A stretch of 32,000 nt of DNA from Candidatus Saccharimonadota bacterium (GCA_000503915.1 CP006915.1:270001-302000), one strand, 5' to 3'; positions 3,450-30,813 are shown, counted from the stretch's first letter. Made by a program: numbers and translations. Notes: generated by a model from the sequence alone, not told the origin.

Positions 3450-3478
3450 AATGACCGGGATGAACCCGGTCATTTTTG
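3450..3478. terminator. Bidirectional intrinsic terminator between the convergent rmd-like and gmd genes
   Basis: A 10-bp perfect stem (aatgaccggg at 3450-3459 / cccggtcatt at 3465-3474) with a 5-nt loop (atgaa), followed by a T-run at 3473-3477. It sits in the 39-nt gap between two convergent stop codons. Confidence 0.7.
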
Positions 3479-3483
3479 TATTT

Positions 3484-4530: not shown

Positions 4531-4569
4531 TATAAAATCTCCCTTTTCACTTCTTTCATTATATACAAA

Positions 4570-5127: not shown

Positions 5128-5181
5128 ATATCTCCTCTGTCACCAATAATACTTGGTTCTTTGGATGTTTGCTACACTTAT

Positions 5182-6737: not shown

Positions 6738-6738
6738 A

Positions 6739-7689: not shown

Positions 7690-7739
7690 GTGGCGATGTA
7701 ACTCCGTTCTATCGTCTCTAGGATATTACTGGTAGTATA

Positions 7740-8099: not shown

Positions 8100-8114
8100 G
8101 ACTCTCCTAGTATA

Positions 8115-16100: not shown

Positions 16101-16847
16101 ACTGTAGGATTTCTTGAAAGCACTTCGAAGCTCAGGATTTCGTTTATATTCTTTGGCAAGTTCTGAGGCATTTATTGTCCGTTTGCCACCATCGGCCAGT
16201 GTGTCGGGGATTTCATATTTCGCCGGATTCCTGTCGGGATAGCCGGACTCTGAAGCTACTTTTATCTCTTTTCCATCGGCATCGAGCGGTTTGATGCCCT
16301 GGGCACTCATGCGGCTGAGCATTTTATTGGGCATTTTTCCCATATTACACTCATATTTGGACACCTTACAGCCGCTACTGTCGCCGCTACTGGACTTCTT
16401 CTCCAGCCATTTTACGAAGCGGTGATCCATGATGGTGCTGCGGCTATCGAGTGTATCAAGACTGTTGGCTTGGAGACTGGGGAACATACTGAAGCTTCCA
16501 AAAAGTGAGGAAAGGACAATCCCTAGGATCCCGACACCGCCGAATATACCGGTGGTAGCGCCTTTTCGACTTCCAGCGAAGCCGACTACTTTCTGCCGGA
16601 AACTACGGCCATCTCTTGGCTTAGTCTCCGAGGGTTGGTAGTTGTACTGATTCTCGCGGTTTTTGACATCATCGATATTCTGCGAGGCATTCGCTGGGTC
16701 ATTGGCGTAGGCTTCTGCCTGATCGAGACCGCTATTGGCGTAGTCACTGCCCGCTGCTTTTTCGCGTGCTTGAAGATCGGGATGCGTGTCGAACATCTCC
16801 CGTGCTCGTTCATCGATCTTGTCTTCACGTTTTATATTTTGAGCCAT
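13176..16847 (-). CDS. Giant membrane protein with a C-terminal endonuclease/exonuclease/phosphatase (EEP) domain and an M23/LytM-like peptidase domain
   Basis: 1223-aa ORF. The first ~95 aa are polar, followed by a TM (TGIFGGVGILGIVLSSLFGSF). A region of about 650 aa with several hydrophobic/amphipathic stretches has no motif I recognise. The EEP motif set lies at aa ~783-1043 (13719-14501): RVATFNIL, IAGLQEA, FTGDFNS, IDHIF, GSDHNMV. The M23 core lies at about 13230-13640: GSPIYSMLDGIV, AYGHG, GDNVKAGQ, GAHLHID. Confidence 0.8.
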   Translation of the reverse strand: MAQNIKREDKIDERAREMFDTHPDLQAREKAAGSDYANSGLDQAEAYANDPANASQNIDDVKNRENQYNYQPSETKPRDGRSFRQKVVGFAGSRKGATTGIFGGVGILGIVLSSLFGSFSMFPSLQANSLDTLDSRSTIMDHRFVKWLEKKSSSGDSSGCKVSKYECNMGKMPNKMLSRMSAQGIKPLDADGKEIKVASESGYPDRNPAKYEIPDTLADGGKRTINASELAKEYKRNPELRSAFKKSYSMRYRAWTGKYIKKVFYSKFGLAQTGGLASDDKKLNADNVDDELDKKLDSSSSDLDETAKKAKFHDRFKSLVERSGERIKKSGGSVSLTLGTGYCVLSNLPGFIAGTYRAIQLAQILVLVNDAVLSPAGKIKAGEASSEEVSALGSKLTETVDGKSALDSAILLSAIGVNKNITPNSRYAPGYAAYKNSFVQGTGKLNKATNGACNKIMSPEALVAATAVDASVAAAAGPETLGLSFVAWATLKAVAKVLIGIGAVDAFITIADKSGLINFVADQAFKLTAGFVDNYTEGARGEKLGDALGVGLFSYFSMSGLAGGGGVLKTNQVVAFNQAMDDVENDYRQEAIATLNPFDISSKYTFMGSIVSGLSTSGVLSNNLFTSMSSIGSLLLRTPSSIISPTAGATPEEDAAAAEARCSHASMFDIEDDIAINPAGYPCVGIPAEYLNMSVDEVYKIATEEEGANINKDTGMWDENDSKIADRLADCAEADLESVGGCTIDNKTKAAESLYQYDKQVSDILDGSDDEPLTSSYSGTGAQFRVATFNILHADDPLTWDNRLKDSIATLKDNNIDIAGLQEARPKQQVALKSAEYGADVYDMWPTKPGDGADLDVNPDSVVLWNKTKFEFVSAQQKKIRYDGNRKLNVVKLRYIENGANGPEFYVLNTHDPINKRADSAGGPQDRKDNNDMYAALIKNELNDAPVIFTGDFNSKMTVEASGNKPLDGKRENLSYCILTRDELLWHVSDAQQNKTGECPSERDVRGNNLIDHIFISTSMRASNYGYVRGGKDEDGSDHNMVYSDVEIPSTTGLGATGSVSASGFAWPVNKKWWTSNRSDFLDAHTLISGTFTSPYAIGIAVDISSPPLGSPIYSMLDGIVTRTNLCGLGDGMIIESDTSQGKLQIAYGHGTNPKFKVGDNVKAGQQILSLGKLGCKVDGAHLHIDMALDGKHICPQDVFLAMDGTSINLQEFTRKAAAPCAR

Positions 16848-16859
16848 AGCTACCTAAGA

Positions 16860-18767
16860 TTATACGCTGTATTCACCGGGGTTCATATAGCCTGGATTGA
16901 CCACCGGTTGGCCTGGTGTGGGCGCTTGAGGAGGTTGTGGTTCCTGGGGCGCGAACTGTGCGTTGCCGCCGGTCGTAACAAGGCTATGCTCGGTTTCGCT
17001 GGCAACAACCTGGACATGGACGTGGTTTTGGCCGGCAAAGAACAGCCCCTGCCCTACCGGGAAGTTTGCGAGACGCTTTCGTTCTTCTTCGGTGAGTTTA
17101 AAGACGTCACTGAGAACATCGACAGCGCTTGAAGATTGCTTGAGCAGTAGCTGCATTGAGCTGTTGGCGACGATTGCCCGTCCCATCTTGCTACCCATAA
17201 AGTCTTCGACGTCCTGGGTGATGGTTGTGAGACCGAGCTGATATTTACGAGCGCGCTTGGCGAGGCTAAACAGGAAGTTTGCCGAGTCGTCATATTTCAT
17301 CAGTTGCCATGCCTCGTCGACGATCAGCATACGTTTACGCTGGTCGCTACGGGTAATGTTCCAGATATGAGATAGCACAATATACATAGCAACCGGACGG
17401 AGCTCATCCTCCAGGTCGCGAATGTTGAAGACCACCATGTGGTTGTTGATGTCGATATTGCTTTGCTGGGAAAAGATACCGGCAAAGGTGCCGCTAGTGT
17501 ACTTGCGCAGGCGTTGTGCCAGCTGTGGCCCGGTGCCGCCCATATGGAGCAAGGTGTCGTAGAGGTCGGAAATGGTGGGCGGTGTTGAGCGGTGTGTCAG
17601 CGGATCGGAGGTAATACCGGCGCGGGCGTAGGTGTCGATCAAGCCTTGATCGAGGTCGGCTTCTTCGGCTGGTGTTAAGCCGGCCATAATTTGGCCGTTG
17701 GCGGTAGCCTGGGAGCCACCGAGCATGAGGCGGAGCAAGCCGTGCAGGGTGACGAGATTGGCACGCAGCGCATCATCGGCTTCTTCGGTATCGATAACCT
17801 GCGGCAGGTCAAAAGGATTAATGCGGACGTCAGAGTTGAGGCTGAGGCGGATATAGCTTCCTCCGACGGCATCGGACAGTTTCTGATACTCATTTTCCGG
17901 GTCGACGATCAATATATCTGCGCCGATCATCATGCTGCGGATCGCCTCGAGCTTTACGGCAAATGACTTACCGGCACCCGACTTGGCAAAGACGACCATG
18001 TTGGCGTTTTCCAGGGTGAAGCGGTCAAAGATCACCAGGCCGTTGTTGTGCATATTTATACCGTAGAGGATTCCCTTTGAATCAGTTAAGTCGGCCGAAG
18101 TGAATGGAAAACTGGTTGAGATAGCGCCCGTATTCATGTTGCGGCGGATCTGCAATTGGTCGGTCATTTGTGGGACGGTGCTGTTGAGCCCCTGCTCCTG
18201 CTGCGAGCTGGCAACTTTCGAGAAGACAAGTTGCTGGCCAAAGATAGTTTCGATCTTGTGCTGGACGAAGCTGAGCTCGTCGAGGCTGTCGGCGTAGAGC
18301 GTGATGTAGAGGCCGTAGCGGAAAAAGCGCTCCGATCCTACCTGCAATTGGTCACGTAGTTCCTCAGCATCTTGGATAGCGGCTTCGAGTCCAGGATCGC
18401 GCGTACGTCCTTTTTCGCTGTTGATTGCCATACTGGCTTCGAGTTGGGTAACTTTTTTGCGCAGATTGTTGAGCACCACCTGGCTCTCGACTGGGTAAAT
18501 AAACATCGAGATGTCGAGCACTTCATCAATATTGATAATAGAACTCAACCATCCGGTGTAGATCTGGCGTGGATAGCCGTAGACGTAGAGAGTACGGCCG
18601 TACCTTGTGCCGAGGCGGAAGTAGCTGGAGTGGATCTCGAGGCTGCTCGGGGCGATCAGGTCGCGGAGAGTGGTGACGCCTTTTAGGAAGGCCTGCTCGA
18701 CCTCGGCTTGCTCACGGGCACGCTGCTGAGCAGCGATGTCGATCGGGTCAAGTTTTTTAGCTGCCAT
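16860..18767 (-). CDS. VirB4-like T4SS ATPase, middle and C-terminal ATPase portion (split VirB4, part 2)
   Basis: 635-aa ORF. Motifs: Walker A VFAKSGAGKSF near aa 260, Walker B RMLIVDEAW, LTTITQDVEDF. The N-terminal segment LIAPSSLEI...YGRTLYVYGYPRQIYTGWL is typical of the mid-region of Gram-positive VirB4/PrgJ/TcpF proteins. It has a P/Q-rich C-terminal tail. The start shares one base with the stop of the upstream ORF (TAATG at 18765-18769). Confidence 0.88.
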   Translation of the reverse strand: MAAKKLDPIDIAAQQRAREQAEVEQAFLKGVTTLRDLIAPSSLEIHSSYFRLGTRYGRTLYVYGYPRQIYTGWLSSIINIDEVLDISMFIYPVESQVVLNNLRKKVTQLEASMAINSEKGRTRDPGLEAAIQDAEELRDQLQVGSERFFRYGLYITLYADSLDELSFVQHKIETIFGQQLVFSKVASSQQEQGLNSTVPQMTDQLQIRRNMNTGAISTSFPFTSADLTDSKGILYGINMHNNGLVIFDRFTLENANMVVFAKSGAGKSFAVKLEAIRSMMIGADILIVDPENEYQKLSDAVGGSYIRLSLNSDVRINPFDLPQVIDTEEADDALRANLVTLHGLLRLMLGGSQATANGQIMAGLTPAEEADLDQGLIDTYARAGITSDPLTHRSTPPTISDLYDTLLHMGGTGPQLAQRLRKYTSGTFAGIFSQQSNIDINNHMVVFNIRDLEDELRPVAMYIVLSHIWNITRSDQRKRMLIVDEAWQLMKYDDSANFLFSLAKRARKYQLGLTTITQDVEDFMGSKMGRAIVANSSMQLLLKQSSSAVDVLSDVFKLTEEERKRLANFPVGQGLFFAGQNHVHVQVVASETEHSLVTTGGNAQFAPQEPQPPQAPTPGQPVVNPGYMNPGEYSV

Positions 18768-19645
18768 TATGCCCTACCTTTTGTGACGTAGGTGCTGGTC
18801 ACATTGTCAAAGTCACTAAGTGGCTGCCGGACGGCTGTGTCGGGGTTATAGATGTTGTAATACAGCTCGCCTAGCTCTTTGGTGTTCAGCTGGACGCTTT
18901 TGACGCCAAGCTGAAACAGTCCACTCATGACAGCATCGACACGGTTTTTGATCTCATCTTTTGCTTTATCGTAGGCGGCTTGGTCGATCTTGACTGGCTC
19001 GGTGCTTTGCTTGGCGAATAATTTACCGAAGAAGCCTTTTGCCTGATCGCGCAAGTCGGAAAGGTCACCCCCGGGGTAAAACGGCACGATGATAAAAAAG
19101 CTCTTGTCCATAATGTTGGCTTCCTGGCTCAGGACGTCGATAAAGTTGATGTAATCGTCCATCAGGACGCCGAGCAGCATATTGTCTTGGTTGCGCCGCA
19201 AAGTGGCGAGACGGTCGATGTAGGGGCCGATATCGACACGCTGTGAGCGGATAAACACTTGAGCGGGAAAATAGAGCGAGTTCAGAAAGTTCTGGTAGCT
19301 ATACTCTACCCCTTCGCGTTCTTTACTGCTCATGAGGTCGAAGTTGATCGACTTACAGGCGATGACAGCGCGAAAACTACCGTCGCGCATGATCACCATG
19401 CTCTCGCGAATTTCAGAGATCAGCAGAGTGTTCTGAGTCGTGTTGGGGTTTGGTTTTGGCTTGGCTGGTGCCGCCTGGCTTTGTGGCTGAACGGGACTTG
19501 CGGGAGTTACCGAGGGGGCTGGCTGTGGCGCAGCAACGGGAGGCACACTCGAAGAACCGATCGGGACGGTCGGTTGCTGTGGTGGCAGGGCTTGCTGGTT
19601 TGGGGTGTTAGGGGGCATTGCCGAAAAAGAGTTATTCCCACTCAT
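18767..19645 (-). CDS. VirB4-like N-terminal domain protein (split VirB4, part 1) with a P/Q-rich leader
   Basis: 292-aa ORF. The first ~70 aa are low-complexity P/Q/A/S. Then LISEIRESMVIMRDGSFRAVIACKSINFDLMSSKEREGVEYSYQNFLNSLYFPAQVFIRSQRVDIGPYI follows. This matches my memory of the N-terminal block of monoderm VirB4 homologues (I..I.dG.i...dg....v..v..iNf.L.s..E......f..fLn.l....Q). Confidence 0.6.
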   Translation of the reverse strand: MSGNNSFSAMPPNTPNQQALPPQQPTVPIGSSSVPPVAAPQPAPSVTPASPVQPQSQAAPAKPKPNPNTTQNTLLISEIRESMVIMRDGSFRAVIACKSINFDLMSSKEREGVEYSYQNFLNSLYFPAQVFIRSQRVDIGPYIDRLATLRRNQDNMLLGVLMDDYINFIDVLSQEANIMDKSFFIIVPFYPGGDLSDLRDQAKGFFGKLFAKQSTEPVKIDQAAYDKAKDEIKNRVDAVMSGLFQLGVKSVQLNTKELGELYYNIYNPDTAVRQPLSDFDNVTSTYVTKGRA

Positions 19646-19657: not shown

Positions 19658-20596
19658 CTAGCGAAGCGATATGACCACCTCATTCTCGGAAAGTTTTTCT
19701 TTCTCGTGGATGCGATTCGCTTCCCGCGCGATCGTTTCGACCGATAAATCGGGGTTATTTGCAAGGTTTATTATATCAGCAGACACGCTCTCAACGCTAG
19801 TGCTTTTCTCTGCTGGCTTTTGAGGTGGCGTCGTGTGGTTGACCGGTTCAACAACGGCTTGGTGCATAGTCGGATATGGATTGAAAGTCAGATGGGCGCT
19901 GGTGTCGTCTACTGCAGGCTGAGGGGCGGCGGTCTGAGACAGGTCAATGGTAGACGGTGGAGACTGCTGTATAGGGGCTTGAGCTGGTGCTGCCGCCTGC
20001 TGACGGGCGCGTGCCAGTACTTCCTCGTGATACTTCGTATTAGTTTGTTCGAGACGTGAGCCAAATGCGGTGCCAACGCTGGCGGTACTATCGAGTATAT
20101 CCTCTGTCTGCTGGGCCTCGTAGTACATATCGGAATTCATAGAGCTATCGGGGGTGGGCGCTTGACCGGCGACGCCGCGGACTGCCCAGCCACGTGAATC
20201 GACGATATTAGCCAGATACGACAGGCGCTCTCTGGCCTCATCTTCGGATAAATCTTTTGTTCGCTGTACTTCTACTACTTTCGGTGCGGTAATCTCTACC
20301 AGTGTCTGTATGCCGTCGGGGTTCCACAGGCGTCGGTGCGGCTTTAGGTAAAAAGAGATAAGTGCGGCGAGATAAGTCTCCATCGGCTGGTCTTTTCGTA
20401 GTGGCAAAGCCAGTGCCCCAAAAAAGACGATCACGGGCAGTGGAATGATCATAAGCGGCAGAAAAAGCCGACTCAAAAACCAGGCAATCGTTAGCGCTCC
20501 CGCAACGATAATCAGGTAGATAAACTGACGAAAGCTAAACGGGCCGATGAGCTTGTCATCGGCCTCGACGTCTTGGGGGACTTTATAGACGGCCAT
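19658..20596 (-). CDS. PrgI/VirB3-like T4SS membrane protein with a long C-terminal extension
   Basis: 312-aa ORF. The N-terminus MAVYKVPQDVEADDKLIGPFSFRQFIYLII..., followed by two hydrophobic helices and LRKDQPMETYL...YLKPHRRLW, follows the PrgI-family pattern. It sits immediately upstream of VirB4, as PrgI/VirB3 does. The ~200-aa C-terminal extension includes a P/Q/A-rich segment. Confidence 0.7.
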   Translation of the reverse strand: MAVYKVPQDVEADDKLIGPFSFRQFIYLIIVAGALTIAWFLSRLFLPLMIIPLPVIVFFGALALPLRKDQPMETYLAALISFYLKPHRRLWNPDGIQTLVEITAPKVVEVQRTKDLSEDEARERLSYLANIVDSRGWAVRGVAGQAPTPDSSMNSDMYYEAQQTEDILDSTASVGTAFGSRLEQTNTKYHEEVLARARQQAAAPAQAPIQQSPPSTIDLSQTAAPQPAVDDTSAHLTFNPYPTMHQAVVEPVNHTTPPQKPAEKSTSVESVSADIINLANNPDLSVETIAREANRIHEKEKLSENEVVISLR

Positions 20597-20620: not shown

Positions 20621-23569
20621 CTAGATATTTGGACCGTAAGTGGCCGCAGCAGCATCCTGCTCGTCCTTAGCTATCTTGTTAAGGATGGCATCGTGTAGAA
20701 CTTTAGCTTCTGGCTTAATGAGGTTATTGATCTGTGGATTAGAACGAGCCTCATTGATGGCTGTCTTCAAGCTAGCCTTTTGCGAGTCATTCAACTCTCC
20801 ATTGAGAGCTGCCTTGTGAATACGCTTCATCTCATCTGGATTCATGCTCGCCAGGCTGGCAGCAGAGAGCTTGGTACCAACTCGTTTGTTAATTTCTTCC
20901 TGCATATCCGTGACGCGTAGCGGGTTACCTTTCGCATCTTTCATGATTTTCCCGTCACTGTCGTGCATGACTTGACCGAGCTTACCTTCAACAAGTTGAC
21001 CAGTAGCCTGGTCGCCTAGTGCCCAAGGTTTATCTTTCATGTCATATGCCATTTGTTTTTGTACACTTGAAAGTGCCTCTACTTCTTTTGAGTTACCGGT
21101 TGTGTCAGCTTCGTTCATGAGTTTTGTAGCAATGTCCAGGGCTCGAATATGTGATTCACGATGGCTTCGAGACATCACCAGTCCTGCCGCTGCGGCTCGC
21201 TGCTCTGAGCTCAACGCAGTGTCACTTATCATGCCTATCAATTGATCATTACTTGCACTGGTCAGGGTCGTTTTAAAAGCACTGACGTCATCATCAAATT
21301 GTTTATGTATTCCTTGAGTAGCGACAGCCGCAGCGCGTACACGAGCCGATTCGTCGGCTTGACTGATAGCACTTCCGCCCGCCGCCGCGTTCTGTAGTTT
21401 TATCGCACGCTCCGTGTAGTTGCCGTTTGCGTCAGTATCCCCGAGTTGGTTGGCCATATAGGTACTTCCGCTTCGCTTCGCTTCACCCTCTCTCGATGCC
21501 AGTAGAGAGTCTCGTCGTGTCTTGTATCGACTATAAGCACCCAGTTTGCTACTTCCAAGCCACCCTTCTTTGTTGTGGGCTGCTATATTCCATCGGTTAC
21601 CTACGTCTTTTTTCATTCGTTCAGCCTGCTCGCTAAATCGCTTCTTATTTCTACTAGCCGCCGCTCCTTGTGCCCTGTCCGCCATACCACTCAACTTTGC
21701 ACCGATAGATCCAGTTGCAGACAAGGCGCTTTTTAGTACGATTGGCACGGCAAAGAGTGGTACTGCCATGACACCGAGCGCGGTGATTTGCAGCATGTAG
21801 TTGCTTTCGTCAGGGTCTCCCCCGGCGTTATTGATGATGCGGGCAGCCAAAGTACTGGCACCAAATATAACGCCGACCACCGGAAATACCAGTAGTAACG
21901 AACTAAACATCTTCCACCACTTCTTGAACCATTTTTCGGTATTTGGCAGCAGGTACGCAACGAAAGCCAAGGGCGAGACGACGACCAGGAGGATCAAAGC
22001 AGCCTTTCGTGCGATCAAGATGAGAATGATAAGAGCGAATGCGAGCAGGGCTGCCGTGCTGATGGTAGTTATGGCAAGCAGGCCAACGACCAGTGCCGCT
22101 GCGCCGACTAGCACGAAGCCTATGACTTTTTTCCAACTTGGCAGATCCGACGCGGTGGCAGAGATGGCGTCTGTTGTCGGCATATCCTTAAAGAATGAGT
22201 AAATGCTACTGCCGAGGATGTTACTCAGGTCGACGGCGATCTGACATACAAAGTACGAAAGGTTGACGAGTACAGCAGCGATGAATAGCCGCGGCAGCAT
22301 GCGTTTAATACCGTAGTTTGAGACACCAGTTCCGGTGATCTGCGAGTAGACAATGATCAGAAAGACAATCACGAATGCCACGTTGGCGATATCACGGAAG
22401 TTACTCCAGGCAGCGCGGGTATCATTATCGGTCAACAGCTTCGGCTCAATCGTGAGAAAGTCAGAGATAAACCCGAAAGCTGCGTCATTGAGCCCTCCCA
22501 TGAAGTTCATGATTGGGCAGATAATCCAGCCTACCCCTTCCACGCTACACGAAGTAGTGGGCTCGGCAGGGGTACATTCCCCAGTGCTATTATTCCAGGT
22601 ACCGCCGTTTTTTTCACATTTTTCTTTTTCCCCTTTTAATCTGTCTCTTTCTTTAGTAGCTTTATCGACGCACTCTTGTCGATCGTTCTTATCCTGCAAG
22701 GCTCTACATGTTTGGTTTATGTATTCATCAGTTGCTTCGGCTGTGATAATCGAATAATTGCCATCGAGTATTCTCGTAGCATTTGCACGAGTCGTACAGG
22801 TTGCTACTGAGATGGAGGGGGAGCTTTTTAGGCACGTAATGATGGATTTGTAGTAATTACACCGCTCAATACTATCTTGGGAACTAGTGGTGCAAACAAT
22901 GGCTGCGTCTGCTTTTTTGATCTGCTCTTTCCTGCGAGCCTTACAGGCGCTATCATCCTTTTTGCAGGTCTCTATCGTGACGCCCATGAAGGTTTCACCG
23001 GTAGGCTCAGAGATGTTGCCAAACGCCACTTGGTTACTGCCCAGCTGCTGGATATCTCTAACCGCCGATGTACAGTCGGAGTCTTCTTTTTGATTATCGA
23101 GGTTGTCGTCACGGCGTACACCTACAAAACTACCGCCAGACCGCGTATTAGCGTCAATCTTAATGGCGACATCACACGAAATGCGCTCACCTTTATCTGT
23201 AACCGCCTCTACTCCATTATTAGTGGCGTACTGTGTGTGGGTAATATATAATTCGTTCTCTCTGGAGTATTTAAAATAAATCTCGGCGGTGTCTTCATTA
23301 TAGTAGTCTTTGTTGTGGCTATTTTCCCCCTCACCAAACACCCACTTATCTCCATCTTTTCTGAACATTGGAATGGATGTGACGTTTGGATCACTAATGA
23401 AACCACCTTTGGCCGAGATAAGACTTTCATAACTCAATGTGTAGGTCGGTTGTGTGCCGTCAGCGTGGACAACTTGACTCGTGTAGAAACTAGCTATAAA
23501 AACCGCTAGGAGTAAGCTCAGGTATAACAGTGGCTTATTTTTTATTTTTATAAGACTAAGCATAATCAT
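20621..23569 (-). CDS. Giant VirB6/TrbL-like polytopic T4SS channel protein, paralogue A (Cys-rich ectodomain, ~7 TM, charged C-terminal tail)
   Basis: 982-aa ORF. It has a signal peptide/anchor (LLYLSLLLAVFIASFYTSQVVHA), an ectodomain of about 300 aa with about 16 Cys, and the conserved junction SCSVEGVGWIICPI. A multi-TM core follows (LPRLFIAAVLVNLSYFVCQIAVDLSNILG; SPLAFVAYLLPNTEKWFKKWW), then a hydrophilic tail of about 340 aa. It is clearly paralogous to 24650-27913. Confidence 0.75.
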   Translation of the reverse strand: MIMLSLIKIKNKPLLYLSLLLAVFIASFYTSQVVHADGTQPTYTLSYESLISAKGGFISDPNVTSIPMFRKDGDKWVFGEGENSHNKDYYNEDTAEIYFKYSRENELYITHTQYATNNGVEAVTDKGERISCDVAIKIDANTRSGGSFVGVRRDDNLDNQKEDSDCTSAVRDIQQLGSNQVAFGNISEPTGETFMGVTIETCKKDDSACKARRKEQIKKADAAIVCTTSSQDSIERCNYYKSIITCLKSSPSISVATCTTRANATRILDGNYSIITAEATDEYINQTCRALQDKNDRQECVDKATKERDRLKGEKEKCEKNGGTWNNSTGECTPAEPTTSCSVEGVGWIICPIMNFMGGLNDAAFGFISDFLTIEPKLLTDNDTRAAWSNFRDIANVAFVIVFLIIVYSQITGTGVSNYGIKRMLPRLFIAAVLVNLSYFVCQIAVDLSNILGSSIYSFFKDMPTTDAISATASDLPSWKKVIGFVLVGAAALVVGLLAITTISTAALLAFALIILILIARKAALILLVVVSPLAFVAYLLPNTEKWFKKWWKMFSSLLLVFPVVGVIFGASTLAARIINNAGGDPDESNYMLQITALGVMAVPLFAVPIVLKSALSATGSIGAKLSGMADRAQGAAASRNKKRFSEQAERMKKDVGNRWNIAAHNKEGWLGSSKLGAYSRYKTRRDSLLASREGEAKRSGSTYMANQLGDTDANGNYTERAIKLQNAAAGGSAISQADESARVRAAAVATQGIHKQFDDDVSAFKTTLTSASNDQLIGMISDTALSSEQRAAAAGLVMSRSHRESHIRALDIATKLMNEADTTGNSKEVEALSSVQKQMAYDMKDKPWALGDQATGQLVEGKLGQVMHDSDGKIMKDAKGNPLRVTDMQEEINKRVGTKLSAASLASMNPDEMKRIHKAALNGELNDSQKASLKTAINEARSNPQINNLIKPEAKVLHDAILNKIAKDEQDAAAATYGPNI

Positions 23570-23578
23570 TTAAGAATG

Positions 23579-23607
23579 ATTATGCCCTAGTTCTATCTAA
23601 ACATCAA
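23579..23607 (-). promoter_or_regulatory. Sigma70-like promoter for VirB6-like paralogue A
   Basis: On the minus strand: TTGATG (23602-23607), a 17-nt spacer, then CATAAT (23579-23584). Only 9 nt separate the -10 element from the ATG at 23569, and there is no SD. This implies a leaderless or near-leaderless mRNA. Confidence 0.4.
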
Positions 23608-23619
23608 TAATAAGAAGAT

Positions 23620-23644
23620 GGCTCGACTTCGGTGGAGTCGAGCC
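23620..23644 (-). terminator. Intrinsic terminator-like hairpin after the 295-aa gene
   Basis: A 9-bp perfect stem (ggctcgact at 23620-23628 / agtcgagcc at 23636-23644) with a 7-nt loop, 8 nt downstream of the stop at 23652. On the minus strand a T-rich tract (TCTTCTTATTATT) follows. Confidence 0.5.
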
Positions 23645-23651
23645 TATACTA

Positions 23652-24539
23652 TTAACCTTCGTTGATCTTTATAGTTCCATCTTTTTGCTGAACCAGCTGG
23701 TAGGGCTGTTCTAGTTTTACGTCGATGGATTTATGTTCTGAGTAATTATTGTCTTGGTCTTGCACCATATATTCGACGCGCAGATAGCTCAAGTCAGGGT
23801 AATTCACTGGATCGTTCACAAATGACGAGTAAACACTACAGCCATAGTCCTGTGGTGCGGTGTCATTTGAAGCGGTAGGACAGACGAATGTGCCGATATC
23901 CTTGACGTCGGGGTTTTCTGCAAGAATTTGTGCGGCAATATCTTTGAGAGAGTTCACGATCTCCGAATCAGGTGTATCGGTAAAGTCGCTCACCGGAATT
24001 TTGTCGACAGGAATGTCGGGGTTTTCTACGAGCACTCCTAAGTACCAGTTGAGGTCTTCACGGATGCTTTTATTGAAAACGCTGCCCCATTCGTCATCGC
24101 TAATACCCTCTAGTATATTCGCATCAAACTGAACGCGATCTTTGTTCTGGAACAGCGCCTCGATTCTTTGATCGAGCGTCTCGGTATCAATTTTAGTTAT
24201 GCCAGGCTCTTTGGTGCCCGGGTCGGCAGACTCGCCGCCACTAGTTGCTACTAATGCGCCGCCAATACCTATAACACTAGTGGCTACCATTCCTGCGATA
24301 GCTCGGCGGTGTCTCCGCATAAAGCTTTCGTTGGATTTCGCTGGGGCTTCTTGCACCACATCGACAGGTTGAGTCAACGGTGTGATGTCTCTAGAACTTT
24401 CGGGAATTTTTAGAGTTGCATCGGCTAGAGGGATGTCAGACTCTTCAAACGGGCGCTCTCCATGATGGACTCCTGAGTGAGGAATTTGTTCCTTGGATCG
24501 ATTACCGTTGCCGAATGTGAATGGTTCTTGGTTGGCCAT
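23652..24539 (-). CDS. Bitopic membrane protein of unknown function (candidate VirB8/TcpC-position T4SS component)
   Basis: 295-aa ORF. It has a polar N-terminus of about 80 aa, one TM (AIAGMVATSVIGIGGALVATSG) and an extracytoplasmic domain of about 190 aa. It is sandwiched between the two VirB6-like genes, with its own predicted promoter and terminator. I recognise no diagnostic motif. Confidence 0.45.
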   Translation of the reverse strand: MANQEPFTFGNGNRSKEQIPHSGVHHGERPFEESDIPLADATLKIPESSRDITPLTQPVDVVQEAPAKSNESFMRRHRRAIAGMVATSVIGIGGALVATSGGESADPGTKEPGITKIDTETLDQRIEALFQNKDRVQFDANILEGISDDEWGSVFNKSIREDLNWYLGVLVENPDIPVDKIPVSDFTDTPDSEIVNSLKDIAAQILAENPDVKDIGTFVCPTASNDTAPQDYGCSVYSSFVNDPVNYPDLSYLRVEYMVQDQDNNYSEHKSIDVKLEQPYQLVQQKDGTIKINEG

Positions 24540-24649: not shown

Positions 24650-27600
24650 TTACAGTTGCCCGTTCGGTCCGCGTCCGTCATCAAAGTCGTGGACACGATC
24701 TGTGCGGAAGACTGTCGGAGCCTTTGTCTTTGCATACGTCTCGTATGCAACCTTAGTCTCCATCGGTATGGTCGAGCGGCGATCGCTTATGTAGTTGCCA
24801 ATGACCTGCATCAACTCGGCCTCACGGTCACCAATACCTGCCCTAACTTGAGGATCGGTAAGCGCGAATTCGATCGTATTAACCAGAGAGACGCGCGCAC
24901 TTTCGTCAATCCTGCCTCGCATATCGTCGTCACGAAGTATCTGAATCGTGCGCTGGAGTTCATCGACATCGGTTTGAGCCAAGCGGCTGGCATTGATCTT
25001 CTTGTCATTGATGTCACGGACAATTGCCTCCTGGCCTTCCAGGAAGAAGGTACCGACTTCAGCGTTGCCTCGGTCTGTGCCCGAGAAGCTTTTGATTGCC
25101 AACTTGCTGTTTTTGGCCGACTCAACGAATAGCTGCTGAATGTCACGACGGCGATCGATCTCTGCTTGATCGGTAATCCGCACACCTTTAAGTGGCTTAC
25201 CTTCGGCATCTTTTTGTATGAAGCCTTGCGCATCACGTACGAGCTCGTAGTAAGCATTGTCGTCCTCGTCATAATTCATACCAAGAGTACTGACGTAATC
25301 TTTTGTCCTCTGGTAGGCCCAGTTGTTACCTTTGGTGAGGAGTATCTCACGCATAGCTGCGTCACGAAGGGCTTCGTTGCTCGATACATCGTTTTCGTCC
25401 CTGTCGTGACCAGTTTGATGAAGCTTAATCAACTCGGCTAAGCTATACTCACTGAGCACGGAGCGAGAGTTCTCGACATCCTCGAGGTAGGCAGAGACAA
25501 TGTCCTTCTTTGCTTTAGCATATATGCGGTTCGAAGCGCTCTCACCGCCAATGCCGCCCGCGTAGGTTCGTAGGGCGTCGTTGGTTTTGAGCTCGTTGGA
25601 CATGTTGGCCTGTTGTACGCGTTTGGCGGCTTCTTGACCCCACTTCTCTACCTCAATATCTTGGCCAAGCTGCTTGATCCTTCCGGCGGCCATTTTATCG
25701 GCGTTGAGCGTGATATTTGGTGCGGAGGCTCCGTCGGCACGGATATTAGCGATCAGCTTGTTCCACTGCTCTTCATACTTGGTGGCAGAATCAGTGGCCT
25801 CCACAGCCTGTAAACGAAGATTGCGAACATGGTCGTCTGTTCGTGAGGTGCGATCAAAGTAGGCATCAGCTCGTTTCTCTAAAATCGTATCAATCGTGCC
25901 GGCCTCCTTTTTCATCGCTTGAGTTTCGTTGTAAAGTCGCCGCAGACCACGTGCTGCTGCAGAACTTCCGGTAAATTCGCTCTTGAACTCTAGCTCCGCT
26001 TCAGTGTCGAGCCGTGCCTTAATCGCCTCGGCATGCTTGGTGTCGACGGTCGCATGAATCTTTCTGTCACGAAGTGCTTGGGTTTGGTTGATCTGAGTTT
26101 GCAAGTCGCGCTCAGCATGAGCTGTGAGTGACTCTTCGTAAATATCGCCCCTTCCCTTGGCGAGGTGTGCCTCGTGGTGGAGTTGGCGACGATAGACATT
26201 CTGTCTGTCGTTACCAGTGGCCATAGCAGTTTTGTAGCCTTCGAAATTGGTACTCTCACCATAGTGCTTCTCTGCTTCGGCATCGTGGGAACGAGTGTAG
26301 ATACGACGTCCGGCTGCAGTCTGCGTAAAGAGTCCTTCGCTCATACTTTCATTGGCGGTCTTCATAGCTTCGCGCTCACGGCGGCGGTAGTCACGGTAGT
26401 AGGCCAGGTTGTTGGGGTTGGTGCGCGCCAAGCCGCGGCGCAGCCTGCTATTATACTGGCGTCGACCGTCCTGGAAGCCCAGTCGTTTTGCTCGCTGATC
26501 TTGCTGCATGCGACCACGAGCCTGCTCTTGCCCGCGGCGCGTGTCAGCCCAGTTCTTGGTGCGGTCAAAGACACCCTTACTCTTATCGTTGGTGATATTG
26601 GCGATTGCGGAAAGCAGACCACCACTCAGCTTAATGAGAAATGGCGTAATAAAGAGCGGGACGATCTGGACGGTCATACCGAGGATGACCACGATGATAC
26701 TGTCGGTATTTTGGATGATAAGCGTCCCCGCCAGCTGGGCACCACCGAAAATGACCGAAAAGGCCGGGAACATGATAAGCATGTTCATGAATAGCTTCCG
26801 CCAGCGTGTGAACCATTCTTCAGTGTTTGGTAGTAGGTAGGCGACGAATGCCAGGGGCGAGATGATGATAAATATCGTGATAAGCGCCTGCCTGGCCGCC
26901 AAGACGGCGACGGCGACGATGGCAGCAAAAATAGCCGGGATTAGCGCGCTCAGGAGCAGCATCGCCAACCCTACGCCTGTACCAGAGGCGATGATCACTG
27001 CCGAAGCGCCGAAAAGTACCGCACCTCCGCCCGCTAATACGCCGGCGCTGACATTTGCCCAAGTTGGTGTGGCGGTATTGGCGGCGGCAGAATTAGGCGC
27101 ACCGGCGATAGCGCGGAGCGACTCGAACATATTCTGAATGGAGAACCCAAGGATATTTGAAAGGTCGACTCCGAGTGCACAGATCCAGTACGAAAGGTTC
27201 ACCAGGATAGCTGCGATGATCAGACGAGGCAAAAGTTTTTTGATTGTGTAGTTACTGAGAAGTCCCCCGGTGATTTGACCATAGATCATGATAAGGAACC
27301 CGACTACGAATAGAACATTAGCGATACTTCGAGCGATGTCCCACATCCGGTACAGGCTGCTGTCGTTGGTGGTGAGGAGAGAAACCTCAAAAAATTTGGT
27401 GATGACACCATAGAGAAAGTCCATCGATTCGGCGATCGCTTTACTGACGGGACAGATAATCCAACCGATACCATCGAGGTCACATGAACTGGTCGGCTCC
27501 TGTATCGGCGGTGCGCGTGGGGTGATGTGGATTGTCTCGGACGTCCCAGGATCAGAAAACTCCGGTAGTCCGTTTTCTCCGCCGGTATATTTTTCGTAGC

Positions 27601-27913
27601 TGATAAATGTTGCCGACTTCGATTCATTGAGGTAGCTTTTACTCTCAGTCGAATCAAAGAAAATGACCGAACCCTTCTTCTGATCCTTTATGAGGTCTAC
27701 GAAAACGATTGACCCATCTGGAACGCCAGGCAGAGTATCTGAGGCTTGTTTGACGATTGGCCCTTGGTAGGTGCGGCCGTCATAAAGAATGGTTTTATCA
27801 TCTTGCCAGGTGGCGTCGCTGGCGGCATACACCGAGGTAGGGCTAAGGAGTAAATACGTGAAGACGACCACCAAAAATGTGGCGAACAGCATGATAAAAT
27901 TCCGCGTGGACAT
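24650..27913 (-). CDS. Giant VirB6/TrbL-like polytopic T4SS channel protein, paralogue B (very long charged C-terminal tail)
   Basis: The ORF-track frame is open to 27949 (1099 aa). I prefer the ATG at 27913 because GAGG lies 4 nt upstream and the product then starts with a clean signal peptide, MSTRNFIMLFATFLVVVFTYLLLSPTSVYA. Blocks shared with paralogue A: SSCDLDGIGWIICPV, LPRLIIAAILVNLSYWICALGVDLSNILG, SPLAFVAYLLPNTEEWFTRWR. An R/E/K/D/Q-rich C-terminal region of about 630 aa follows (about 24650-26539). Confidence 0.75.
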   Translation of the reverse strand: MSTRNFIMLFATFLVVVFTYLLLSPTSVYAASDATWQDDKTILYDGRTYQGPIVKQASDTLPGVPDGSIVFVDLIKDQKKGSVIFFDSTESKSYLNESKSATFISYEKYTGGENGLPEFSDPGTSETIHITPRAPPIQEPTSSCDLDGIGWIICPVSKAIAESMDFLYGVITKFFEVSLLTTNDSSLYRMWDIARSIANVLFVVGFLIMIYGQITGGLLSNYTIKKLLPRLIIAAILVNLSYWICALGVDLSNILGFSIQNMFESLRAIAGAPNSAAANTATPTWANVSAGVLAGGGAVLFGASAVIIASGTGVGLAMLLLSALIPAIFAAIVAVAVLAARQALITIFIIISPLAFVAYLLPNTEEWFTRWRKLFMNMLIMFPAFSVIFGGAQLAGTLIIQNTDSIIVVILGMTVQIVPLFITPFLIKLSGGLLSAIANITNDKSKGVFDRTKNWADTRRGQEQARGRMQQDQRAKRLGFQDGRRQYNSRLRRGLARTNPNNLAYYRDYRRREREAMKTANESMSEGLFTQTAAGRRIYTRSHDAEAEKHYGESTNFEGYKTAMATGNDRQNVYRRQLHHEAHLAKGRGDIYEESLTAHAERDLQTQINQTQALRDRKIHATVDTKHAEAIKARLDTEAELEFKSEFTGSSAAARGLRRLYNETQAMKKEAGTIDTILEKRADAYFDRTSRTDDHVRNLRLQAVEATDSATKYEEQWNKLIANIRADGASAPNITLNADKMAAGRIKQLGQDIEVEKWGQEAAKRVQQANMSNELKTNDALRTYAGGIGGESASNRIYAKAKKDIVSAYLEDVENSRSVLSEYSLAELIKLHQTGHDRDENDVSSNEALRDAAMREILLTKGNNWAYQRTKDYVSTLGMNYDEDDNAYYELVRDAQGFIQKDAEGKPLKGVRITDQAEIDRRRDIQQLFVESAKNSKLAIKSFSGTDRGNAEVGTFFLEGQEAIVRDINDKKINASRLAQTDVDELQRTIQILRDDDMRGRIDESARVSLVNTIEFALTDPQVRAGIGDREAELMQVIGNYISDRRSTIPMETKVAYETYAKTKAPTVFRTDRVHDFDDGRGPNGQL

Positions 27914-27959
27914 TCTACCTCGCGGGAAGCTTAAGACTAACTCCCACATATCGCTTCTA

Positions 27960-27988
27960 ACAGTATCATTTTATAGATGAAAAGTCAA
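27960..27988 (-). promoter_or_regulatory. Possible promoter for VirB6-like paralogue B (divergent from the pilin promoter)
   Basis: On the minus strand: TTGACT (27983-27988), a 17-nt spacer, then TACTGT (27960-27965). The -10 element is weak. Confidence 0.3.
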
Positions 27989-28021
27989 CCACCCGTCTCT
28001 GATAATAGTCACGGAAAATAC

Positions 28022-28050
28022 TTGCGCTCTAGCCACTTTTATCGTATGTT
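28022..28050 (+). promoter_or_regulatory. Possible promoter for the pilin gene array
   Basis: TTGCGC (28022-28027), a 17-nt spacer, then TATGTT (28045-28050). Only 9 nt (aaagaagac, no clear SD) lie before the ATG at 28060. The -10-to-ATG spacing is the same as at 23579-23569. Confidence 0.35.
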
Positions 28051-28059
28051 AAAGAAGAC

Positions 28060-28749
28060 ATGAAATTAAAACAAAAAATTCTAGTAACTGGAGTGTTTAC
28101 GCTTTTCGTTTCACTGTTTAGCCTGGCAGGGTTGGTGTACCCAGCCTACGCTGATCCGGCAGCGACTGGAAAATCGGTGGTATGTAACGACGGTAAAACA
28201 GTCGTAGCACATAAGTATGATGCCCCACCAGTTGAATCTATGGACGACAAAGACTACCAAGTCGCCTGCAAGAAGCATCGTGGCTATACGCATATCGATG
28301 AAACGATCGTCTGTAAAGACGGCAGTTCACAAAATGTCTATAAAAAACTAGCCGATCCCAAGGATAAGTTAGATGACAAAGATAGACAAAAAGCTTGCAA
28401 GGGGCATGGTGGCATTAAACCAGCTTCCTCGGATGACGAGCCTGCAGTCAACGACTGTGGAGGCGTCGACACAGCTATCATCAAATGCGACAGTAGCGGC
28501 ACCGGCCTCGAGAGCAATGCTGTCTGGAAGTTGCTGATCATCGCGATCAACATATTGAGCGCCGGCGTGGGTATCTTGGCGGTCGGCGGCATCATCTATG
28601 CTTCAATCCTCTATACGACGGCCGAAGACAAGCAGGATCAGATCAATAAAGCCAAGGACATCATCCAAAATGTGGTCATTGGACTTGTTGCCTACGCTCT
28701 GATGTGGGCGGGACTTAATTTCTTGATACCAGGAGGATTATTCAGTTGA
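28060..28749 (+). CDS. VirB2/TrbC-like T4SS pilin paralogue 1 (long, with a duplicated Cys-module ectodomain)
   Basis: 229-aa ORF with a signal peptide ending AYA-D. Two modules of about 36 aa share identical Cys spacing. The C-terminal two-helix hairpin (LLIIAINILSAGVGILAVGGIIYASILY ... NVVIGLVAYALMWAGLNFLIP) is shared with the five downstream genes. Confidence 0.65.
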   Translation: MKLKQKILVTGVFTLFVSLFSLAGLVYPAYADPAATGKSVVCNDGKTVVAHKYDAPPVESMDDKDYQVACKKHRGYTHIDETIVCKDGSSQNVYKKLADPKDKLDDKDRQKACKGHGGIKPASSDDEPAVNDCGGVDTAIIKCDSSGTGLESNAVWKLLIIAINILSAGVGILAVGGIIYASILYTTAEDKQDQINKAKDIIQNVVIGLVAYALMWAGLNFLIPGGLFS

Positions 28750-29201
28750 TGAAACGGTTTACTCATTTTGTTATTTCAGGACTCATTGTCATCCTTGGCA
28801 TGGGGGCAATGACACTGACGGTGGCACCAACGAGCTATGCCGCCCCGAAAGCTGACTGTAGTACGTCAAACTTCCTTACTTTTCCTGCCTGGTACAGGGG
28901 GCTTATAAATGAAGATGACTGTACGATGAAGAGCCCGAGCCAGCTTGGTGGCGATGATGAGACGAAACTATCGCGTTATATCTGGCGGATTGTTCTGAAC
29001 GTCCTCGAAATCGCGCTGCAGGTCGTCGGTTACGCGGCGGTCGCATACCTTATCTATGGCGGCTACAAGTACCTGGTGAGCACTGGTAGCCCCGACAAGA
29101 TTACGGCAGCTCGTAAAACGATCCAAAACGCTTTGATTGGCCTGATACTGTCCTTTATGTCGGTGGCGATTGTCGCAACGATTGCTGGAGGGATCAAGTA
29201 G
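28746..29201 (+). CDS. VirB2/TrbC-like T4SS pilin paralogue 2
   Basis: 151-aa ORF. It starts at TTG 28746 (AGGAGG 9 nt upstream) or ATG 28749 and overlaps the stop of paralogue 1. It has a signal peptide (…TVAPTSYA), two Cys in the mature N-region and a C-terminal two-helix hairpin (VVGYAAVAYLIYGGYKYLVSTGSPDKITAARKTIQNALIGLILSF). Confidence 0.65.
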   Translation: MMKRFTHFVISGLIVILGMGAMTLTVAPTSYAAPKADCSTSNFLTFPAWYRGLINEDDCTMKSPSQLGGDDETKLSRYIWRIVLNVLEIALQVVGYAAVAYLIYGGYKYLVSTGSPDKITAARKTIQNALIGLILSFMSVAIVATIAGGIK

Positions 29202-29202
29202 T

Positions 29203-29493
29203 ATGTTTGCTTCTCTGTACACTCTGGCAGCAACGAAGATTAGCGGTAGCGATATTAATATTCCACGAGTAGAGGCCGACAGTGTTCTTGCAAGTGTACT
29301 CAATATTGCCTATTTTGCGGCTGGCATCACCGCGGTTATCGTCGTCATCGTCGGCGGCATCTTCTATGCGATTTCATATGGTGACATGGCAAAGGTCAAG
29401 CGTGGCAAAGATATGATCCTCTACGGGGTGATCGGTCTCGTCTTTGTCATGATTGCTTTTACGGTGACAAACTTTATAGTAGGATGGTTTTAG
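29203..29493 (+). CDS. VirB2/TrbC-like T4SS pilin paralogue 3 (shortest; no obvious cleavable signal peptide)
   Basis: The ORF-track frame opens at 29170 inside paralogue 2. I prefer the ATG at 29203 (GGAGG 11 nt upstream, 1 nt after the upstream stop), giving 96 aa. Hairpin: ITAVIVVIVGGIFYAISYGDMAKVKRGKDMILYGVIGLVFVMIAFTVTNFIVGWF. Confidence 0.6.
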   Translation: MFASLYTLAATKISGSDINIPRVEADSVLASVLNIAYFAAGITAVIVVIVGGIFYAISYGDMAKVKRGKDMILYGVIGLVFVMIAFTVTNFIVGWF

Positions 29494-29495
29494 AT

Positions 29496-29873
29496 ATGAA
29501 GCGAAGATTTACTACCCTCACCCTTGTAGCAGCAATGACGTTTGGCGTAGCGTCAATGGTACCAGCTGCTTCCGCTGGTGCGATAAACGTCTTTGATAGC
29601 TGTAGCACTGGTACAAGCGACAGTGAAATATGTAAAGCAAAGAACGAATCGATCAACCCGGTGGTTCAAAATATCATCAACCTGCTGCTGTGGGCGATCG
29701 GCCTGATCTCGGTCATTATGATCATCATCGGCGGCATCCGTTACACGATGTCAAATGGCGACGCCAATATGGTGCGCGCCGCCAAGGATACGGTGATGTA
29801 CGCGGTGATCGGCTTAGTCGTTGCAATACTGGCCTATGCTATCGTTAATTTTGTCGTTACTTGGTTTAAATAA
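29496..29873 (+). CDS. VirB2/TrbC-like T4SS pilin paralogue 4
   Basis: The preferred start is the ATG at 29496 (MKRRFTTLTLVAAMTFGVASMVPAASA signal peptide). The mature N-region has C-x9-C. The hairpin LLLWAIGLISVIMIIIGGIRYTMSNGDANMVRAAKDTVMYAVIGLVVAILAYAIVNFVV is nearly identical in pattern to paralogues 5 and 6. Confidence 0.75.
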   Translation: MKRRFTTLTLVAAMTFGVASMVPAASAGAINVFDSCSTGTSDSEICKAKNESINPVVQNIINLLLWAIGLISVIMIIIGGIRYTMSNGDANMVRAAKDTVMYAVIGLVVAILAYAIVNFVVTWFK

Positions 29874-29885
29874 AAGGAGAACACT

Positions 29886-30272
29886 ATGACACACAAGCTA
29901 CGTACTCTCATTCTGTCTGGCCTTATGGTACTGGGGCTCAGCGCGGCTCCATTAGTGTTAGCCGGCAATAGCGTTTACGCCACCACTGCAACCGACAATG
30001 TCACCAAGGGCTTGAATGCTACAGGTGCCAGTAATGGTAAGAACCTTCAGAAGAACATTAAGACAGTTGTAAATGTTATCCTCTTCTTGCTCGGTGCGAT
30101 TGCAGTGATCATGATTATCCTTGGTGGCGTGCGCTACGTGCTCTCCAATGGGGAGGCATCACAGGTGACAGCGGCAAAAAATACGATTCTGTACGCGGTG
30201 ATCGGCTTGATCGTTGCCCTACTCGCCTATGCGATTGTCAACTTCGTCGTCGATCAGTTTACAAAGCCTTAA
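29886..30272 (+). CDS. VirB2/TrbC-like T4SS pilin paralogue 5
   Basis: 128-aa ORF with AGGAG 6 nt upstream and a signal peptide (…VLAGNSVYA). Hairpin: ILFLLGAIAVIMIILGGVRYVLSNGEASQVTAAKNTILYAVIGLIVALLAYAIVNFVV. It shares a 19-nt identical run with paralogue 4 (29797-29815 = 30190-30208). Confidence 0.75.
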   Translation: MTHKLRTLILSGLMVLGLSAAPLVLAGNSVYATTATDNVTKGLNATGASNGKNLQKNIKTVVNVILFLLGAIAVIMIILGGVRYVLSNGEASQVTAAKNTILYAVIGLIVALLAYAIVNFVVDQFTKP

Positions 30273-30334
30273 CAAAAGAGGTGGATTCTGCTATAACTAA
30301 AGCAAGTAACATTCGAAGAAAGGAATTAAAACGA

Positions 30335-30757
30335 ATGAAAAATATTTTGAAAAAAGCTGCACGTTCGCTGATGCTCGTACCAGCAATGGCGTTGGCACTG
30401 AGCTTTGCGGCAGTACCGTTTGGCGGTTCCGCGTATGCTGCTGACCCAACTTGTGATGGTACTACTGGCCTCAACGCTACAACCGGAGCAAAATGTGCTA
30501 AAGGAACTGGTACAAGTGATAATCTATTTGGTCAAGGCGGGATCTTCCGAACCATTACCAACGTACTACTCTTCCTAATTGGTGCCGTAGCGGTCATTAT
30601 GCTGATCATCGGCGGTATCCGCTACACGATTTCAGGTGGTGACTCAACTGCCGTCACTGCCGCAAAAAACACGATTCTTTACTCAATCGTCGGAATCATC
30701 GTGGCGCTGCTTGCTTACGCGATTGTCAACTTCGTACTCGATAGCTTTACAGTTTAA
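30335..30757 (+). CDS. VirB2/TrbC-like T4SS pilin paralogue 6
   Basis: The ORF-track frame opens at 30281 on a GTG. I prefer the ATG at 30335 (MKNILKKAARSLMLVPAMALALSFAAVPFGGSAYA signal peptide). The mature N-region has C-x13-C. Hairpin: LLFLIGAVAVIMLIIGGIRYTISGGDSTAVTAAKNTILYSIVGIIVALLAYAIVNFVL. It shares a 17-nt identical run with paralogue 5 (30231-30247 = 30719-30735). Confidence 0.75.
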   Translation: MKNILKKAARSLMLVPAMALALSFAAVPFGGSAYAADPTCDGTTGLNATTGAKCAKGTGTSDNLFGQGGIFRTITNVLLFLIGAVAVIMLIIGGIRYTISGGDSTAVTAAKNTILYSIVGIIVALLAYAIVNFVLDSFTV

Positions 30758-30784: not shown

Positions 30785-30813
30785 AAAAACCACCGGTTTG
30801 ACCGGTGGTTTTG
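30785..30813. terminator. Bidirectional intrinsic terminator between the pilin array and hsp20
   Basis: An 11-bp perfect stem (aaaaccaccgg at 30786-30796 / ccggtggtttt at 30802-30812) with the loop tttga. It has an A-run on the left and a T-run on the right, so it can terminate both convergent transcripts. Confidence 0.8.

Follow-up and report, generated by a model that had tools for sequence, protein, structure and literature searches.

Six tandem VirB2-like pilin genes in a Saccharibacteria type IV secretion locus: positionally conserved classes and strain-level replacement of one N-terminal domain

[quoted passage not shown] An array of signal-peptide proteins related to VirB2 and placed beside VirB4 and VirB6 was described in 2018 (McLean et al., 10.1101/258137), and the same array is present in Nanosynbacter lyticus TM7x (10.1101/258137), in which stable symbiosis is accompanied by upregulation of three of the six array genes (10.1101/2022.03.25.485537). 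In Southlakia epibionticum ML1, the six PF18895 genes SEML1_0014-0019 encode products of 132, 185, 103, 126, 127 and 138 amino acids (aa), flanked by a 1088-aa VirB6-like gene ahead of the array and by Hsp20 behind it, and all six were classed as essential by transposon sequencing (Tn-seq) (Wang et al. 2023, PMC10633639). A broader survey has reported 441 VirB2 arrays with 2-11 genes each, found in 383 assemblies, located near dnaA and with a mean within-array identity of 25% and a maximum of 54% (Quinonero-Coronel et al. 2025, PMC12102498). Moreover, the Saccharibacteria type IV secretion system (T4SS) is essential for these ultrasmall bacteria to live as epibionts (PMC11665869). Here, we describe a further copy of this array in a stretch of 32,000 nucleotides from CP006915.1 (270001-302000), hereafter the window, where six plus-strand pilin genes, labelled p1 to p6 in array order, occupy positions 28060-30757. 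The six-gene array is an already published, class-wide feature of Saccharibacteria, and its occurrence in the window is a confirmation and not a discovery.

The window genes are orthologous gene for gene to SEML1_0014-0019. As in ML1, dnaA and dnaN, VirB4, a TrsD-like protein, PrgI, VirB6, a small protein and a VirB6-like protein of about 1100 aa are encoded on one strand, and the six T4SS_pilin genes lie on the other strand, with a convergent Hsp20 next in line. In each array, the third gene is short (103 aa in ML1, 96 aa in the window). Set against the ML1 lengths given above, the window products measure 229, 150, 96, 125, 128 and 140 aa, and it is because of these differing gene lengths that the window is assigned to a species other than ML1. 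The two arrays also differ in the N-terminal domain (N-domain) of p1, which is longer and repeat-containing in the window, and essentiality is known from ML1 only. Among the matches listed, which are GTDB species representatives, the closest relatives of p4 show 41-65% identity over the best aligned segment and at most about 57% over most of the length.

The six genes probably encode fixed, non-interchangeable subunits of one heteromeric T4SS pilus or conduit, a reading that is carried by comparison across species. The survey covered at least 80 loci, each from a different GTDB species representative, together with several metagenomic contigs. Among the 64 complete arrays, six genes is the most frequent size (36 arrays), followed by seven (13) and five (9). 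Positional orthology was assessed on the 222 genes of 37 complete six-gene arrays, representing 37 species: the best match in another genome was found at the same array position for 207 genes, and the best cross-genome match scored above the best same-genome paralogue for 218. The two-helix hairpin is kept in 32 species, and signatures distinguish individual classes, namely CGG..T.II.C for p1, C..LTFPAWY.GL...C for p2, which is also kept in 32 species, and A.AI.VF..C...VCKA for p4, with C36 and C46 invariant in 27 orthologues. The six pilins thus appear to be ancient, fixed and distinct subunits, as opposed to interchangeable or recombining variants. Positional orthology, taken together with the natural fusion of p2 and p3 discussed below and the Tn-seq results in ML1, suggests that the six are likely non-redundant parts of one assembly. 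An earlier note on this DNA had offered four hypotheses for the multiplicity of pilins, namely a heteropolymeric filament, major and minor pilins, host-specific adhesive variants or antigenic variation driven by recombination between the copies. A heteromeric or major/minor assembly is the best fit and host-specific variation fits p1, whereas recombination between paralogues is not supported. With regard to larger arrays, seven or eight genes including two of the p1 class were observed in ten loci (L020, L024, L025, L041, L044, L049, L051, L055, L060 and L080); one of these two genes is very long (344-502 aa), the p1 class being by far the most variable in length.

The third class is distinguished by its topology. 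By hydropathy, p1, p2, p4, p5 and p6 comprise a leader and two hydrophobic helices, and p3 comprises the two helices only. The claim that a leader followed by two helices is common to all six proteins therefore stands for the helices and for five of the leaders, but not for p3, for which the earlier note had itself suspected the lack of a cleavable signal peptide. This suspicion is borne out by the window copy and by 31 of 31 p3 orthologues (94-111 aa), which have just two hydrophobic segments, whereas the other classes nearly always have three. Furthermore, in seven loci from several Saccharibacteria lineages p2 and p3 form one in-frame open reading frame (ORF), 234-265 aa long, that encodes two pilin domains and hence four helices, and which is colinear with p2 plus p3 of the window and contains p3 as its C-terminal half. 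By the Rosetta-stone argument, this natural fusion points to p2 and p3 working as a pair, and p3 would represent the split half of a p2-p3 unit. The second hairpin of the fusion is expected to start outside the membrane, which fits a leaderless p3 with its N-terminus out. A pilin gene of 318 aa was observed at the same position in another locus (L091).

Variation between strains was examined against two close relatives, L086 and L092. In Hsp20, in the hairpin-coding segments and in the 1099-aa VirB6-like gene, both match the window at 90-100% identity. In the p1 N-domain (about 28095-28450), nucleotide identity to these relatives is 12-55% in 60-nt windows, which amounts to no detectable similarity. 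The corresponding values are 42-68% for the N-region of p5, 52-70% for p6, 65-80% for p2 and 70-78% for p4, and p3 is nearly invariant. With regard to dN/dS between close relatives, the N-regions are short and divergent, and the dS obtained for them is saturated or undefined. The proposal of hypervariable N-regions is upheld between paralogues and, between strains, for p1, p5 and p6, but p2 and p4 keep their class motifs class-wide. Unrelated p1 N-domains were found on C-terminal parts that are 97-98/98 identical (P0137, P0138 and L086), and the window-type N-domain also occurs on C-terminal parts, comprising the CGG motif and the hairpin, that are just 51-63/98 identical (P0125, P0126 and P0132). 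Both patterns point to the N-domain as a module exchanged between lineages at a conserved NDCGGVDTAIIKC junction, and it is replaced wholesale between strains with flanks that are 90-100% identical. No donor copy for the replaced domain was found within the array, suggesting that p1 variation comes from exchange between strains and not between paralogues.

The p1 N-domain of the window (28153-28449, aa 32-131) is an internal tandem repeat with two copies of a unit of about 38 aa, which contains paired cysteines, is rich in lysine and aspartate (VC.DG...Y...DDKD.Q.ACK.H.G) and yields a local alignment score of 91, compared with a maximum of 46 in 1,000 shuffles. A faint match of this domain to PF12587 (DUF3761) is present in the source annotation. 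A second replaced block was observed at 22550-24500 on the minus strand, comprising the N-terminal third of the 982-aa VirB6 gene and the entire 295-aa gene; its identity to L092 is 32-52% at the nucleotide level over 2 kb, with sharp edges and flanks of 88-99%. In the ML1 cluster, SEML1_0012, the counterpart of this 295-aa gene, is the only non-essential gene (PMC10633639). Strain-level variation seems to be concentrated in the p1 N-domain and in the VirB6/295-aa block, which would make p1 the best candidate for a host-facing or otherwise selected surface.

With regard to family membership, there is little doubt that the six proteins are VirB2-like membrane subunits of the Saccharibacteria T4SS. 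The Pfam gathering cut-offs are 26.6 bits for PF18895 (T4SS_pilin) and 27.9 bits for PF04956 (TrbC/VirB2). The former is exceeded by p2 (35.4 bits), p3 (29.2), p4 (47.4), p5 (44.1) and p6 (43.3), and the Pfam T4SS_pilin E-values range from 2e-12 to 9e-5. The p1 protein stays under this cut-off, with 22.9 bits, but reaches 80 bits with a hidden Markov model built here from the hairpin domains of the family, and PF18895 is part of the precomputed annotation of some p1 orthologues. A total of 2,332 homologues of p4 are found in the database, those named being Saccharibacteria or Saccharimonadia. Many homologues carry a precomputed PF04956 match and, at the level of sequence, a kinship of the six proteins with TrbC/VirB2 appears plausible. 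Additionally, all six give weak matches to the NCBIfam pilin-like conjugal transfer protein family NF045849, known from integrative and conjugative elements (ICEs) of Mycoplasma (17-32 bits, under the 40-bit cut-off; E = 5.5e-8 to 3.6e-3). An AlphaFold2 model of p4 places the two hairpin helices at residues 54-85 and 90-123, with a predicted local distance difference test score (pLDDT) of 84-92. Similarity to pilin profiles, as anticipated in the earlier note, is accordingly found in PF18895 for p2 to p6 and as weak TrbC/VirB2 matches for p3 to p5, and its core proposal of tandem VirB2/TrbC-like pilin paralogues with a conserved hairpin is supported by these profiles, by the adjacent VirB4, PrgI and TrbL genes and by the literature annotation of the orthologous array (PMC10633639, PMC12102498, PMC12857230).

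The organisation of the array, for which coordinates are collected in Table 1, agrees with the six tightly packed plus-strand genes first described. From p1 to p6, the intergenic distances are -1 (or -4), 1, 2, 12 and 62 nt, the value of -4 resulting from an alternative TTG start of p2 at 28746 that creates a 4-nt overlap with p1. An independent gene caller, applied to two further assemblies of this strain that are 99.99-100% identical to the window, returned the identical six products. For p6, a GTG start at 30281 was rejected in favour of the ATG at 30335, given an independent call of 140 aa and a median orthologue ORF of 136 aa. Paralogue identities range from 24 to 53% over the whole array, p5 being 46-53% identical to p4 and p6. 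The motif beginning with GG(I/V)RY is indeed conserved in p4 to p6, and the two exact runs reported between them are correct (29797-29815 = 30190-30208 and 30231-30247 = 30719-30735). The hydrophobic helices have Kyte-Doolittle means of about 1.9-3.1 in a 19-residue window, and the cysteine content differs between paralogues as claimed, with counts of 6, 2, 0, 2, 0 and 2 from p1 to p6. The strong bidirectional terminator proposed for the end of the array was located between the convergent p6 and hsp20, with an A-run on the 5' side of its stem and a T-run on the 3' side. At the opposite end, the divergent intergenic region is presumed to be the promoter region of the pilin operon; a promoter scan returned one weak sigma-70-like match within it, at 27977-28006, which is not above chance.

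Table 1. Positions of the pilin genes, of the neighbouring T4SS genes and of related features. Positions are those of the window, except for the fusions, which are given in the coordinates of their own loci.
Feature	Position	Strand	Description
p1	28060-28749	+	229 aa; signal peptide about aa 1-31, Cys-rich N-domain, CGGVDTAIIKC motif, two-helix hairpin
p2	28749-29201	+	150 aa from ATG; leader, C..FLTFPAWY.GL...C motif, hairpin
p3	29203-29493	+	96 aa; no leader; 26-aa N-tail, then hairpin
p4	29496-29873	+	125 aa; leader (ASA|GA), AINVF..C...(I/V)CKA disulfide motif (EICKA in the window), hairpin
p5	29886-30272	+	128 aa; leader, N-region without Cys, hairpin
p6	30335-30757	+	140 aa from ATG; leader, 2-Cys N-region, hairpin
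Bidirectional intrinsic terminator	30786-30812		12-bp stem AAAACCACCGGT / ACCGGTGGTTTT, dG -23.6 kcal/mol, z = -3.5
Divergent intergenic region	27950-28059		between the 1099-aa VirB6-like gene (-) and p1 (+); from gene layout
VirB4 ATPase	16860-18767	-	Pfam P-loop_TraG, 100.9 bits
TrsD-like	18767-19645	-	weak NCBIfam TrsD match
PrgI/VirB3	19658-20596	-	Pfam PrgI, 53 bits
TrbL/VirB6, 982 aa	20621-23569	-	Pfam TrbL, 27.6 bits
295-aa protein	23652-24539	-	counterpart of SEML1_0012
1099-aa polytopic VirB6-like protein	24650-27949	-	SEML1_0013 orthologue, divergent from the array; from ML1 synteny
p2-p3 fusions	L003 7196-7993; L006 6196-6993; L012 6404-7129; L017 6272-6997; L019 6398-7183; L027 1243-1947; L043 6269-6976		one ORF each

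The surrounding locus is the chromosomal, origin-proximal T4SS of Saccharibacteria (TM7, class Saccharimonadia): rnpA, yidC, jag, dnaA and dnaN are present in the window near the T4SS genes, and the same T4SS layout is found in relatives (L003-L005 and others). The 1099-aa VirB6-like protein of the window has no Pfam match, and its orthologues match TrbL_3 (PF19590). Between dnaN and VirB4, the minus strand of 11935-16847 encodes two proteins, one of 417 aa with a CHAP domain and one of 1223 aa in which an endonuclease/exonuclease/phosphatase domain is joined to an M23 peptidase domain, which may provide the T4SS locus with cell-wall hydrolases, in a VirB1-like role, and a nuclease. Positions 1-8100 hold an ABC-2 transporter pair, a GDP-mannose dehydratase and an epimerase, and a GT4 glycosyltransferase, followed by jag, yidC and rnpA next to dnaA, an arrangement that is usual for an origin region, here with a surface-polysaccharide cluster. 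In many relatives, an additional, orphan p6-like pilin of about 135 aa is encoded 1.5-5 kb beyond Hsp20 on the opposite strand (among them L004 11899-12306, L005 11267-11677 and L003 11447-11893, all on the minus strand). This gene is the counterpart of SEML1_0024 of ML1, a non-essential 'pilin'; the window stops at 32000, before the region could be covered.

In the mechanism that we propose, the array would be transcribed as a single unit from 27950-28059 to the terminator at 30786-30812. The products p1, p2, p4, p5 and p6 would enter the membrane via Sec and have their leaders cut by signal peptidase at AxA-type sites, and p3, as the partner of p2, would be inserted with no leader to be cleaved. 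Each mature protein is predicted to form a two-helix hairpin, the short polar loop facing the cytoplasm and the N-terminal segment lying on the outer side. On the model of Gram-negative VirB2, the VirB4 ATPase and a VirB6/VirB3 platform could extract these hairpins from the membrane, and the extracted hairpins might then, following the same precedent, be assembled into one heteromeric structure, either a pilus or a conduit across the wall, extending to the host bacterium. The modular N-domain of p1, which differs between strains, would face the host. A more far-reaching and rather doubtful extension joins these elements: the six would be obligate, distinct subunits of a VirB2-type assembly with p2-p3 as a fixed pair and p1 as a modular host-recognition or tip subunit, the N-domain of which would be exchanged at CGGVDTAIIKC in step with the 22550-24500 block, such modules setting the host range or evading recognition by host or phage. 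If true, it would be the first time that a heteromeric pilus or conduit of the VirB2 type is encountered in a monoderm bacterium. The comparative results narrow the hypotheses, since they indicate a fixed ancient set, suggest p3 as a split half and locate the variation. Furthermore, the variable parts point to regions that are probably host-facing, which is useful for the design of knock-down, antibody and electron cryotomography experiments in cultivable strains.

Several observations weigh against six subunits of one pilus or conduit. All six proteins score below the PF04956 cut-off, the best being p4 with 23.5 bits (E = 6.4e-5), followed by p5 (20.6) and p3 (16.1). A sequence profile search of the PDB yielded no pilin, just MacB transmembrane noise, and Foldseek, run with the p4 model on the PDB, returned helical hairpins at non-significant levels only, with no match at E <= 0.001, because a fold as simple as a helical hairpin does not discriminate; neither search speaks for or against a VirB2 fold. 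The best pilus match, at Foldseek rank 3, was the Aeropyrum conjugation pilus 8dfu, with E = 3.8 and a template-modelling score of 0.39-0.54, values to be read in the light of a fold that is not discriminating. It is consequently the PF18895 profile, together with the genomic context, that carries the family assignment, and not fold matching. A coupling protein and a relaxase were not seen within the window. Additionally, a filament of these proteins has never been observed in any Patescibacterium, a pilus being called a possibility (PMC12857230), and the Tn-seq essentiality of each gene could partly reflect polar effects within the operon.

The alternative that survives best is that the six proteins are integral membrane parts of the T4SS channel, forming a short stalk or a translocon ring, with no extended pilus and with 'pilin' as just a family name. 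Both helices combine strong hydrophobicity with high conservation, Gram-positive-type (MPF-FATA) systems are normally devoid of a pilus (PMC12102498), neither the PDB profile search nor Foldseek matched the proteins in sequence or fold to the solved pilus subunits TraA, VirB2 and CedA1, and six conserved classes suggest a defined complex more than a homopolymer. However, five of the six proteins have predicted cleavable leaders and N-regions that diverge fast between strains, as expected for an exposed surface and not for a buried channel, and the relationship to PF18895 and PF04956 points to VirB2. We therefore consider this alternative unlikely and prefer a heteromeric pilus or conduit of six fixed subunits.

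Much less probable is an origin of antigenic or host-range variation in recombination between paralogues via their conserved 3' halves, an origin that the earlier note had entertained and that has been proposed for the amplified virB2/trwL genes of Anaplasma and Bartonella. The N-regions of p1, p5 and p6 do differ strongly between close strains, and a 19-nt run as shared by p4 and p5 was reached in 2/300 codon-resampled simulations and the 17-nt run of p5 and p6 in 11/300, which makes these runs only marginally unusual. Conversely, the window paralogues use the same codon at 38-40% of identical residues, compared with 31-33% expected from codon usage, a fraction near expectation that indicates synonymous sites close to saturation. 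Moreover, the 218 of 222 genes with orthologues closer than paralogues and the 207 with a conserved position show the class-wide opposite of concerted evolution, and the replaced p1 N-domain lacks a donor in the array. Gene conversion between paralogues was therefore rejected despite the 19-nt run, synonymous similarity being near random and orthologues closer than paralogues, and exchange between paralogues is largely refuted. Equally improbable is the notion of Sec-secreted effectors delivered to the host, which echoes the 'Sec secreted array' and 'six putative effector genes' of early TM7x papers and draws on the signal peptides of five of the six proteins and on the three array genes upregulated in stable symbiosis of TM7x (10.1101/2022.03.25.485537), but was rejected on account of two long, conserved transmembrane helices per protein, which would hold it in a membrane or polymer, with T4SS_pilin family membership and a p3 devoid of a signal peptide also speaking against it.

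Compared with the VirB2, TraA and TrbC pilins of Gram-negative T4SSs, the window proteins share the leader and the two hydrophobic helices with a short loop, and they are likewise encoded with VirB3, VirB4 and VirB6. They differ from these pilins in the monoderm host, in forming six subunit classes compared with one and in profile scores under the PF04956 cut-off; in addition, VirB5, VirB7, VirB9, VirB10, a relaxase and a coupling protein were not seen in the window. The Mbov_0395 family (NF045849) of Mycoplasma ICEs also consists of a small two-helix protein in a monoderm T4SS of the MPF-FATA type, but there it is encoded by one gene only, which is part of a mobile element, and the window proteins score below the cut-off of that family. 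The amplified virB2/trwL genes of the Bartonella Trw system and of Anaplasma phagocytophilum resemble the window array in that several tandem VirB2-like genes have variable exposed parts, which, as far as these systems are cited in PMC12102498, have been interpreted as surface variation for host interaction. By contrast, the window copies are apparently ancient and positionally orthologous class-wide, bear no sign of recent duplication or gene conversion, and each has an ML1 counterpart that is reported as essential. The closest correspondence is with the VirB2-like arrays of Patescibacteria (PMC12102498), which are likewise tandem, divergent PF18895/PF04956 genes near virB4 and the replication origin, and into whose mean of 25% and maximum of 54% the within-array identity of 24-53% fits well. 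Positional orthology, the leaderless third gene, the p2-p3 fusions and the strain-level replacement of the p1 N-domain were not found in the text of PMC12102498. These comparative details, that is to say positional orthology, the p2-p3 fusion and a replaceable p1 N-domain, add detail to a published system, as opposed to establishing a new one.

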